Assembly: GCA_964016885.1 (NCBI GenBank)
Contig: CAXHJY010001169.1
Span: 62,001 to 126,000, forward strand
Direction: 5' to 3'
Length of the DNA stretch: 64,000 bases
DNA from: Eledone cirrhosa
Taxonomy: Eukaryota
Made by a program: the position numbers and the translations under genes. This document shows, in pieces, positions 14,015 through 17,819 of this stretch. Numbering within the stretch: the first letter of the stretch is position 1; the number at the start of each line of letters is the position of its first letter. The notes under the pieces are model-generated. The model ran no database searches and had not been told where the DNA came from. It was given only the letters and a program-made list of their open reading frames with translations.

Positions 14015-14402
14015 TATATATATATATATATATATATATATATATATATATATATGTAAGTATGTATGTATACGTACATACATATATGTATACAGACGTA
14101 CAGTAGCATGCATATATATATATATATATATATATATATATATATATATATATATATATATATATATATATATATATATATATATATATATATATATATA
14201 TAGATATATATATAGATATATATATACATATATATACACATATGCATACAGGTACACATACATATATGCACGCATCAGTTTAGCCGACGTTTATTATAAC
14301 GCCTGCTTTGTTCGTTTGTTTGTCAACAAATCGAACAGCCTGAATTTATGCCATACGGTGTTAAGGCAATCACGTCACCTTTTTGTTCAACACTGACACA
14401 GG

Positions 14403-14447
14403 AACGATGTACTAGTTTCAAGCTTGTTAGCTATCATCAGCACCGTT
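14403..14447 (-). ncRNA. type I hammerhead ribozyme motif (array copy)
   Basis: Reverse complement reads AACGGUG-CUGAUGA-U-AGCU AACA AGCU-U-GAAA-CUAG-UA|CAUCGUU. Confidence 0.8.
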
Positions 14448-14894
14448 TACCCATCTGCCAGATAGTTGAATGTTCGAAAGTATATACTTTCCTTATGAAA
14501 ATTAACGGCTGAGCAGCCTAATTTGCATATTGAGTGATTTAAATCGGTCAGGCATACCGAAAACGATAAGTTGAAAAAAAATGAAAACGAAATTTCATTT
14601 CTCATTCTTAGTATGGCACTTACTTAAATGTAAGTATGTATGTATACGTACATACATATATGTATACAGACGTACAGTAGCATGCATATATATATATATA
14701 TATATATATATATATATACATATATATACACATATGCATATAGGTACACATACATATATGCACGCATCAGTTTAGCCGACGTTTATTATAACGCCTGCTT
14801 TGTTCGTTTGTTTGTCAACAAATCGAACAGCCCGAATTTATGCCATACGGTGTTAAGGCAACCACGTCACCTTTTTGTTCAACACTGACACAGG

Positions 14895-14939
14895 AACGAT
14901 GTACTAGTTTCAAGCTTGTTAGCTATCATCAGCACCGTT
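14895..14939 (-). ncRNA. type I hammerhead ribozyme motif (array copy)
   Basis: Identical motif. Confidence 0.8.
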
Positions 14940-15390
14940 TACCCATCTGCCAGATAGTTGAACGTTCGAAAGTATATACTTTCCTTATGAAAATTAACGG
15001 CTGAGCAGCCTAATTTGCATATTGAGTGAGTTAAATCGGTCAGGCATACCGAAAACGATAAGTTGAAAAAAAAAATGAAAACGAAATTTCATTTCTCACT
15101 CTTAGTATGGCACTTACTTAAATGTAAGTATGTATGTATACGTACATACATATATGTATACAGACGTACAGTAGCATGCATATATATATATATATATATA
15201 TATATATATATATACATATATATACACATATGCATACAGGTACACATACATACATGCACGCATCAGTTTAGCCGACGTTTATTATAACGCCTGCTTTGTT
15301 CGTTTGTTTGTCAACAAATCGAACAGCCCGAATTTATGCCATACGGTGTTAAGGCAACCACGTCACCTTTTTGTTCAACACTGACACAGG

Positions 15391-15435
15391 AACGATGTAC
15401 TAGTTTCAAGCTTGTTAGCTATCATCAGCACCGTT
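15391..15435 (-). ncRNA. type I hammerhead ribozyme motif (array copy)
   Basis: Identical motif. Confidence 0.8.
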
Positions 15436-15626
15436 TACCCATCTGCCAGATAGTTGAACGTTTGAAAGTATATACTTTCCTTATGAAAATTAACGGCTGA
15501 GCAGCCTAATTTGCATATTGAGTGAGTTAAATCGGTCAGGCATACCGAAAACGATAAGTTGAAAAGTTTTCATTTTTTTTTCAACTTATCGTTTTCGGTA
15601 TGCCTGACCGATTTAACTCACTCAAT

Positions 15627-15634
15627 ATGCAAAT
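15627..15634 (+). promoter_or_regulatory. octamer motif ATGCAAAT, one per monomer, ~75 nt upstream of the HHR
   Basis: Present in all six array units and conserved at 23549-23556 in the diverged monomer; function inferred. Confidence 0.45.
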
Positions 15635-15707
15635 TAGGCTGCTCAGCCGTTAATTTTCATAAGGAAAGTATATACTTTCGAACGTTCAACTATCTGGCAG
15701 ATGGGTA

Positions 15708-15752
15708 AACGGTGCTGATGATAGCTAACAAGCTTGAAACTAGTACATCGTT
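15708..15752 (+). ncRNA. type I hammerhead ribozyme motif; predicted cleavage after 15745 (GUA)
   Basis: Stem I AACGGUG/CAUCGUU, core CUGAUGA...GAAA, stem II AGCU/AGCU, palindromic stem III ACUAGU. Confidence 0.8.
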
Positions 15753-16233
15753 CCTGTGTCAGTGTTGAACAAAAAGGTGACGTGGTTGCCTTAACACCGT
15801 ATGGCATAAATTCGGGCTGTTCGATTTGTTGACAAACAAACGAACAAAGCAGGCGTTATAATAAACGTCGGCTAAACTGATGCGTGCATATATGTATGTG
15901 TACCTGTATGCATATGTGTTGCATATGTGTATATATATGTATATATATATATATATATATATATATATATATATATATATATATATATATATATGTATGC
16001 TACTGTACGTCTGTATACATATATGTATGTACGTATACATACATACTTACATTTAAGTAAGTGCCATACTAAGAGTGAGAAATGAAATTTCGTTTTCATT
16101 TTTTTTTCAACTTATCGTTTTCGGTATGCCTGACCGATTTAACTCACTCAATATGCAAATTAGGCTGCTCAACCGTTAATTTTCATAAGGAAAGTATATA
16201 CTTTCGAACGTTCAACTATCTGGCAGATGGGTA

Positions 16234-16278
16234 AACGGTGCTGATGATAGCTAACAAGCTTGAAACTAGTACATCGTT
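16234..16278 (+). ncRNA. type I hammerhead ribozyme motif (array copy)
   Basis: Identical motif; predicted cleavage after 16271. Confidence 0.8.
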
Positions 16279-16816
16279 CCTGTGTCAGTGTTGAACAAAA
16301 GGGTGACGTGGTTGCCTTAACACCGTATGGCATAAATTCGGGCTGTTCGATTTGTTGACAAACAAACGAACAAAGCAGGCGTTATAATAAACGTCGGCTA
16401 AACTGATGCGTGCATATATGTATGTGTACCTGTATGCATATGTGTATATATATGTATATATATATATATATATATATATATATATATATATATATATATA
16501 TATATATATATATATATATATATATATATATATATATATATATATATATATATATATATATATATATATATATATATGCATGCTACTGTACGTCTGTATA
16601 CATATATGTATGTACGTATACATACATACTTACATTTAAGTAAGTGCCATACTAAGAGTGAGAAATGAAATTTCGTTTTCATTTTTTTTTCAACTTATCG
16701 TTTTCGGTATGCCTGACCGATTTAACTCACTCAATATGCAAATTAGGCTGCTCAACCGTTAATTTTCATAAGGAAAGTATATACTTTCGAACGTTCAACT
16801 ATCTGGCAGATGGGTA

Positions 16817-16861
16817 AACGGTGCTGATGATAGCTAACAAGCTTGAAACTAGTACATCGTT
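16817..16861 (+). ncRNA. type I hammerhead ribozyme motif (array copy)
   Basis: Identical motif; predicted cleavage after 16854. Confidence 0.8.
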
Positions 16862-17819
16862 CCTGTGTCAGTGTTGAACAAAAAGGTGACGTGATTGCCT
16901 TAACACCGTATATATATATATATATATATATATATATATATATATATATATATATAGTTAATAAATGAAACAAACAAAACACAAGCAGATATATCGGTTA
17001 TATATAAACAGAAGCAGATATATCGGTTGTGTGTGTACACAATCCCCGTCCCCGTTTACAACAGGCTTAGCAAACAAAAGATAGCTCCGTCCACGCCAAT
17101 CTCATCTGTTTGATGCTCCCAGCTCTTTATTTCATCTATGTCCTCTCCCATCAGATATCATGTCATATCTTATCTCCATGACAATTTACCTCATTCATTT
17201 CCATAACATCCACATTTTAAACTAATACTGAAACGCATTTTTTTTTTTTATCATCTCACCTCACCACCCTTTTCTAGAAATGTTTAGAAGATTATGGACA
17301 CTGTCTACCACAAGCCAAAAATTAATCAGGCCATTTTCTTCAAAGCAGGTCAGTTTTAAGTCAAAAGGAAATGTCAGATGTGAAGGCTAACAGCCTCTTG
17401 TGTCCTTGGTCCTCACACTGTCGATTTCCTCCGTAAAATCGGAAAGACATCAGCCCGCCTGAGGAAGCAGCTCCGTGAGGCTGGGTGGCTGTTGCATCGG
17501 GTCTTGCTGGCCATTCTCTACGGTAATACCCTTGTCAATCTGTCTGCGGGGCATGGCCGAATCACCACTCAGACTGAGTAAGGTGTAGAGTCTCTCTCTC
17601 TCTCTCTCTCTCTCTCTCTCGTTCCCTTTCATGCGTTGCTTCATTCTCTTTTTTTCTTTTTCTTTAGTTTTTCTAAAATCTAAATATTAAATTTTGCCCG
17701 TGAAACATATACATATATACACCAGGTCCGAACACAAAGGAACTAAACTCCCACTGTCACTGCCCCCGCCTCTCCCGCTCTCCCCCATCTCTCACTATTC
17801 TGAGCAAATGGGGGTACAC

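Follow-up and report, generated by a model that had tools for sequence, protein, structure and literature searches.

The 64,000-nucleotide stretch of Eledone cirrhosa DNA analysed here (assembly GCA_964016885.1, contig CAXHJY010001169.1, positions 62,001 to 126,000 of the forward strand; hereafter the window, in whose coordinates positions are given) carries two head-to-head arms of tandem hammerhead-ribozyme repeats set in a (TA)n microsatellite. We read this array as one insertion of a retrozyme without long terminal repeats (non-LTR), made into (TA)n by the reverse transcriptase (RT) of a Penelope-like element, probably on one circular RNA, and give this reading a probability of roughly two in three. 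Judged by its sequence features, all of which are present, the repeat family is a real, young and abundant non-LTR retrozyme, and to judge from its insertions it behaves like a non-autonomous Penelope-like element. The parts of the array are the following, the microsatellites having been delimited from the sequence and with Tandem Repeats Finder.

14015-14050, no strand: target microsatellite (TA)n, left
14051-15565, minus strand: left arm, made of a partial, two whole and a partial monomer
15565/15566: head-to-head junction between the arms
15566-16911, plus strand: right arm, starting at monomer position 316
16909-16956, no strand: target microsatellite (TA)n, right
15708-15752, plus strand: type I hammerhead, predicted cut after 15745
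16234-16278, plus strand: identical copy, predicted cut after 16271
16817-16861, plus strand: identical copy, predicted cut after 16854
15391-15435, minus strand: type I hammerhead, predicted cut after 15398
14895-14939, minus strand: identical copy, predicted cut after 14902
14403-14447, minus strand: identical copy, predicted cut after 14410
15884-16043, plus strand: internal long hairpin centred on (TA)n

The first-pass annotation, made from the window alone, had described six near-identical units. Six hammerhead motifs of 45 nt are indeed present, three per arm and identical throughout, but the whole cut-to-cut monomers number only four (492-583 nt, GC 29-35%), the others being partial. 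The distances it gave between successive hammerheads, 526 and 583 nt on the plus arm and 496 and 492 nt on the minus arm, are returned by the predicted cut positions, and unit lengths differ because the internal (TA)n run varies from 11 to 61 repeats across copies. The units are tandem, non-coding and low in GC, and have no layout of long terminal repeats, primer-binding site and polypurine tract. No Penelope protein match was found inside the arrays; an open frame with RT and GIY-YIG domains is absent from the array, and none is continuous with units in the loci examined.

The ends of the arms point to the inserting enzyme. Monomer positions being counted from the hammerhead cut site, arms end at two sites, position 279 (short) and position 340 (long), which lie 61 nt apart. 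In 70 loci (the window, 12 found by similarity, 37 by hammerhead pattern and 20 by short-end pattern) these two site classes account for 123 of 128 arm ends, 51 of them exactly at 279 and 40 exactly at 340, with the long-class ends of older subfamilies aligning only to 324-330; TA repeats follow 119 of the 123 classed ends. Head-to-head pairs (n=44) combine a short with a long end in 41 cases and include one atypical end in three, while short+short and long+long pairs were not seen at all. The same pairing holds for 28 of 29 pairs at loci that had been chosen without the end pattern. Genome-wide, (TA)n junctions number 2,408 for the short end and at least 1,458 for the long end, the latter count being a lower bound since its pattern matches a single T-run length only. 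By contrast with these fixed 3' ends, the 5' ends that meet at the central junction are scattered, apparently at random. The one-short-one-long rule implies that the two priming events are coupled. Neither the paired fixed ends nor the promoter-like block described below had figured in the first-pass annotation. The sequences around the end sites are the following.

16045-16062, plus strand: small hairpin with the short end site (the inferred reverse-transcription start 1) in its loop
16628-16645, plus strand, and 14618-14635 and 15112-15129, minus strand: other copies of this hairpin
16056-16115, plus strand: 61-nt tail between the end sites, with an AT-rich hairpin and a T7-10 run
16639-16698, plus strand, and 14566-14624 and 15058-15118, minus strand: other copies of the tail

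The 3' edge of the tail is the long end site, a putative start 2 that follows the AT-rich hairpin, and the fold of 16040-16125 has a z-score of -3.55. In the window, the left arm ends at 14051 exactly at the short site, and its 5' end is truncated at position 329. The sister families of 466 bp and 310 bp have their own pairs of end sites. The data did not support a preferred direction of insertion at interrupted (TA)n targets (9 against 9 and 6 against 8 loci, p 0.73).

These statistics bear on the simplest alternative, an ordinary satellite that carries the hammerhead as a passenger and spreads at the DNA level by rolling-circle DNA, unequal exchange or fold-back repair at (TA)n. Processes of this kind can yield arrays in tandem as well as palindromes and (TA)n ends; at 3 of 23 loci the flanks carry short inverted duplications, which suggest that fold-back took place. 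However, fixed 3' and random 5' ends, with one of each end class per insertion, are common to the family and to an RT-encoding element, and the stems covary at the RNA level (see below). The satellite explanation is largely refuted by the end statistics, and we regard it as very improbable.

The RT-encoding element in question is an intact autonomous Penelope-like element of the same genome, whose 777-amino acid (aa) open frame contains RVT_1, a CxxxxCxxC motif and GIY-YIG. Both arm ends are visible in 7 of 12 loci of this 777-aa family, and all seven pair a short with a long end and run through a 38-nt tail into (TA)n. Because the arm ends of the retrozyme show the same Penelope tail footprint, a Penelope reverse transcriptase is likely to insert the repeat, and the Penelope-type class of the enzyme is well supported. 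Penelope-like elements form partial tandems, may carry an inverted 5' copy and, as a rule at one end, a tail of 30-40 bp, and are biased to (TA)n (Craig et al. 2021). The anole Penelope protein cuts and extends both strands in vitro, starting at two adjacent internal RNA sites in a stem-loop; the stretch that separates these sites makes up the tail, and the start site does not differ between the strands (Frangieh et al. 2024, PMC11167929). Endonuclease-bearing elements with the Neptune/Nematis linker (Craig et al. 2021; PMC11167929) share with our array the partial tandems, 5' truncation, inverted 5' copy, one-end tail, (TA)n targets, a stem-loop end site and a hammerhead upstream of the ends. 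The array differs from them in its lack of an open frame, its tail of 61 nt against 30-40, its many-unit arms, its canonical rather than minimal hammerhead and its strictly short+long pairing.

A footprint identical to that of autonomous elements would also be expected if the unit were the terminal repeat (pseudo-LTR) of an unseen autonomous Penelope-like element and the arrays its open-frame-less by-products. Of 57 Xenopus retrozyme families, 24 are similar to known elements, in 21 cases to Penelope-like termini (bioRxiv 10.64898/2026.07.22.740005), and in the window a sister unit stands directly 3' of a decayed Penelope frame, at 23480. Yet no unit is continuous with an intact Penelope frame among the loci examined, the junction at 23480 lies inside the RT region and looks like an insertion or a template switch, and the unit has a promoter-like block of its own. 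We consider this explanation improbable, if less so than the satellite.

The hammerhead motif has the features noted from the window, namely a stem I of 7 bp (including one G.U), the core CUGAUGA/GAAA, the site GUA and helix III ACUAGU; to these we add a U.U at the base of stem II (10.1-11.1), which had gone unmentioned. A descriptor search found seven motifs in the window, the six of the array and a sister at 23649, against none in 150 first-order Markov sequences of 64 kb each. The exact 45-nt motif occurs 8,299 times in the 3.0-Gb genome and its reversed pattern, used as a control, not once. A looser core pattern gave 23,560 genomic matches, among them sister families whose identity to the unit is about 60%. 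Conservation of the core among genomic copies had been named in advance as one of the points that bear on the reading, and the core is kept: its 11 positions differ in 2 of 165 cells, against 5 of 15 for the free N7 and 208 of 3,199 for other positions, as counted in 15 of 20 loci chosen by end pattern and not by ribozyme (five were without a scorable copy). Fisher's test gives p 0.003, a generous figure because the copies are related and not independent. In ten hand-picked motifs from three families, both sides have changed in 11 of 17 pairs, and slid controls are far lower. In the proposed covariance-model check, the Rfam search returned no hammerhead family match at the gathering score and only a weak match of the motif to Hammerhead_HH9 (18.5 bits, cut-off 52, E 0.077). 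Rfam microRNA matches were rejected as TA-repeat artefacts. Taken together, the tandem low-GC non-coding units, the type I hammerhead with its conserved core and the dispersed young copies uphold the retrozyme reading first made from the window.

In the minimum-energy fold of a single motif helix III is missing (z -0.83), and the ACUAGU palindrome can pair between two motifs with a computed energy of -6.8 kcal/mol; from these two results we infer that cleavage would proceed in dimers. The U.U at the base of helix II is also present in HHR_Amex2 of the axolotl, the monomer of which cleaves 22% in an hour (PMC7229834).

Each unit further contains a block resembling the promoter of host U6 genes, at these positions.

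15626-15675, plus strand: promoter-like block, with an octamer-containing 12-mer at 15626-15637 and a TATA at 15668-15675
16152-16201 and 16735-16784, plus strand: repeats of the block
14518, 15010 and 15506, minus strand: 12-mers of the minus arm

Transcription is predicted to start at about 15698-15705, immediately 5' of the hammerhead. In the host, TATGCWAATKAG near -78 and a TATA near -30 are common to three independent U6 genes or arrays, and the unit has both. The 12-mer occurs in 4 of 7 distinct U6 upstreams and was not found in U2 upstream regions; in 311 kb of other loci it occurs inside these repeats only, and the composite of 12-mer and TATA appeared in none of 5,000 shuffled units. 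The block is conserved between the unit and its sister and, in 19 older copies, varies less (3/228 and 2/152) than its upstream neighbours (38/633). Newt satellite 2 is likewise a hammerhead tandem repeat with an internal small nuclear RNA (snRNA)-type promoter and a dimer-type helix III, its promoter reportedly being used by polymerase II (PMC2220036), whereas the block found here resembles the upstream region of host U6, not U2. In some genes of U6 arrays (L189, L190, L193) the upstream 12-mer is replaced by repeat-like sequence while the TATA is kept.

Whether the template was a circle is addressed by the make-up of the arms. These reach 6.9 kb in this family, with a median of 572 nt, and one sister array has about 39 units. 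The difference between units is 0.55% inside one arm, 1.5% from arm to arm and 6.3% from locus to locus, and at locus L040 nine of ten whole units have equal TA length. At 3 of 18 two-armed loci, counted after nine loci with nested or multiple insertions had been left out, private variants are fixed throughout both arms. A 2-unit periodicity is present at L034, L095, L152 and the sister array L089, and a partial 3-unit pattern in both arms of L113. Of 72 arm 5' ends, none lies 15 nt or less from the cut site, and 198 of 200 cut junctions are exact, which argues against jumping between linear cut monomers. The proposal that the array was copied from a circular RNA is therefore favoured by uniform arms, periodicity and the absence of cut-site ends, although linear read-through RNA also fits, and on the sequence patterns we put a circular template at a little better than even. 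In the L089 sister array, helix III palindromes are by turns intact and mutated (period two units), the pattern expected of a dimer circle in which one ribozyme is dead. One RNA run whose origin in this organism was not established, and which therefore carries no weight as a test, gave 0 reads on the unit and on the sister/Penelope stretch; a head-to-tail joint in a run of unknown kind is equally present in tandem DNA. Searched for scars of adenosine-to-inosine editing, the 287-nt body showed no strand asymmetry (A>G 21, T>C 19). The internal TA runs of 186 units hold 110 TG against 3 CA interruptions, many of them inherited or explicable by slippage from TG-rich edges.

The main competitor is a Penelope-type enzyme acting on a linear, mostly uncut read-through transcript of existing arrays, the hammerhead being weak or coming into play later, with arrays kept by DNA-level expansion. 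It would account for a median arm of only 572 nt and for a hammerhead of weak type, and uncleaved RNA is the main substrate of the anole Penelope protein (PMC11167929). On the other hand, the conserved core and the covarying stems across families imply selected cleavage, and it takes a bottleneck of a single unit, then amplification at insertion, to produce arrays of 11-39 near-identical units whose haplotypes are fixed within a locus in both arms. We find this linear-template explanation unlikely, while giving it clearly more weight than the two alternatives above.

Several observations count against the reading of a single insertion on a circular template. The exact cut junctions and the absence of 5' ends piled up at the cut are explained equally well by uncut linear RNA. 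Most loci are without periodicity, unequal exchange or arm-to-arm conversion can mimic both periodicity and shared variants, and in the window only the terminal units of the two arms have a variant in common, the arms being out of register further in. The right end of the window array departs from the two-site rule, as the arm stops at position 57 and not at the expected long site 340; only six such junctions exist genome-wide, so the long end may have been lost, some 280 nt having disappeared since insertion, or mis-primed. The U.U and the 2-bp helix III predict weak cleavage, and eight of nine Xenopus retrozyme dimers were without cleavage (bioRxiv 10.64898/2026.07.22.740005), such that long uncut linear RNAs are possible. 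The hammerhead is dispensable for insertion in vitro (PMC11167929). Whereas Xenopus retrozymes have homologous termini in autonomous elements (bioRxiv 10.64898/2026.07.22.740005), the terminus of the 777-aa family shows no similarity to the unit, and no unit-homologous terminal repeat was found within 1.5 kb on the same strand in 30 GIY-YIG loci examined of 150 listed, out of 10,597 candidates. The promoter motif was defined after the fact, and its spacing from 12-mer to TATA is 42 nt against 46-48 in U6, that is 4-6 nt shorter. The T7-10 run present in this subfamily would stop polymerase III. Because of this run and the short spacing, transcription by polymerase II, as with newt satellite 2, is equally possible.

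With these points weighed, the single retrozyme insertion by a Penelope-like enzyme remains our preferred reading, and a more detailed scheme can be proposed for it. The promoter block of each unit would start transcription just 5' of the next hammerhead, read-through giving multimers. The hammerheads would cut these, likely as dimers via the palindromic ACUAGU helix, and a host ligase would close monomer, sometimes dimer or trimer, circles. A dimer of the Penelope protein would then cut (TA)n, each subunit starting at one of the adjacent stem-loop sites 279 and 340, and both would travel in the 5' direction round the template, making a variable number of turns before falling off at random, the ends of the complementary DNA (cDNA) being joined head to head. 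We see an even chance that the family is, in this full sense, a set of self-promoting RNA circles that parasitises Penelope-like elements, with a dimer priming both (TA)n ends and rolling round a single circle.

The surroundings of the array and the other loci add several observations. A decayed Penelope-like element lies in the window at 22120-23500, with a plus-strand open-frame fragment that contains a DKG motif and is about 81% identical to the 777-aa family; the element has an inverted terminal arm at about 22313 (minus strand) and is joined at 23480, inside its RT region, by a sister unit, through insertion or template switch. A similar terminus stands at 20602 (minus strand). That sister unit, at 23490-23980 on the plus strand, is a single 5'-truncated copy of the 466-bp retrozyme family with its long end into (TA)n, a hammerhead core at 23649, G-C at 10.1-11.1 and the same promoter block. 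A third, unrelated-looking hammerhead family of 310 bp (L095:6700-9000, L149 and L051) has a helix III of ACGCGU, a U.U at stem II and a pair of short and long ends of its own, separated by about 34 nt; the U6 12-mer was not seen in it. Further dispersed type I hammerhead families, with a long stem II and a helix III of ATATATAT or ATGCGCAT type, occur at many loci, and the genome is unusually hammerhead-rich. Elsewhere in the window, 34236-34342 on the plus strand holds a lone 5S rRNA copy (83 bits), probably a pseudogene, which lacks 12 positions of the model, and minisatellites of 42-43 bp and 37 bp occupy 24494-25314 and 59501-59699.

The 777-aa elements (L073-L084) are a young family of autonomous Penelope-like elements, in which many intact frames are identical. 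Their terminal repeat keeps a GAAA-CCGGUC half and has no CUGANGA, which suggests that an active element has lost its hammerhead or has an atypical one. At L031, L040 and L095, which are the three of 23 two-armed loci with inverted flank duplications, 39-94 nt of flank is duplicated on both sides, as if both arms had been primed from one target side. An intact RTE-type long interspersed nuclear element (LINE; endonuclease, RT and PHD finger) at L085:5288-9300 has a (GAT)n tail targeted by a sister unit, which implies that microsatellites other than TA are also targeted. The long open frames beside sister units at L085 were considered as a Penelope partner and rejected, as they belong to this LINE.

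Metazoan non-LTR retrozymes (PMC7229834; bioRxiv 10.64898/2026.07.22.740005) resemble the present family in their tandem, low-GC (29-35%), non-coding type I hammerhead units, in forming dimers to long multimers, in reaching thousands of copies and in being accompanied by Penelope-like elements, there proposed as mobilisers. The unit found here is 456-583 nt long and contains an internal (TA)n hairpin, compared with 150-450 bp in PMC7229834, and falls inside the 51-972 bp range of bioRxiv 10.64898/2026.07.22.740005. Expression and circles were demonstrated in those systems; the two-armed layout, the fixed paired ends and the promoter are described here and do not appear in the parts of those accounts that were compared. 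A dependence of retrozymes on Penelope-like elements was proposed earlier (PMC7229834), and animal retrozymes have been argued, for vertebrates, to be non-autonomous Penelope-like sequences (Li, Clavereau and Pollet 2026, bioRxiv 10.64898/2026.07.22.740005). As to novelty, a literature search that extended to portions of the main text of the key papers brought up no account of this family or of retrozymes inserted as two arms. Retrozymes of this kind are known, including from a mollusc, the mussel (Cervera and de la Pena 2020, PMC7229834).

As a family, this is one more retrozyme. For the entry of retrozymes into animal DNA, Penelope-like and circular routes have been proposed from co-occurrence and terminal-repeat similarity. 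The proposed copying route becomes testable in vitro here, since thousands of young insertions bear a Penelope two-site footprint, the genome encodes an intact candidate helper, and there are defined priming sites and a predicted transcription start. The coupled priming bears on Penelope and, by kinship of the enzymes, on telomerase-like priming. If the scheme of rolling round a circle is true, the genome of Eledone cirrhosa would directly record rolling-circle target-primed reverse transcription, a process proposed for retrozymes and unshown in the portions of the papers compared, and the strict short+long pairing would be a new constraint on the insertion of all Penelope-like elements.

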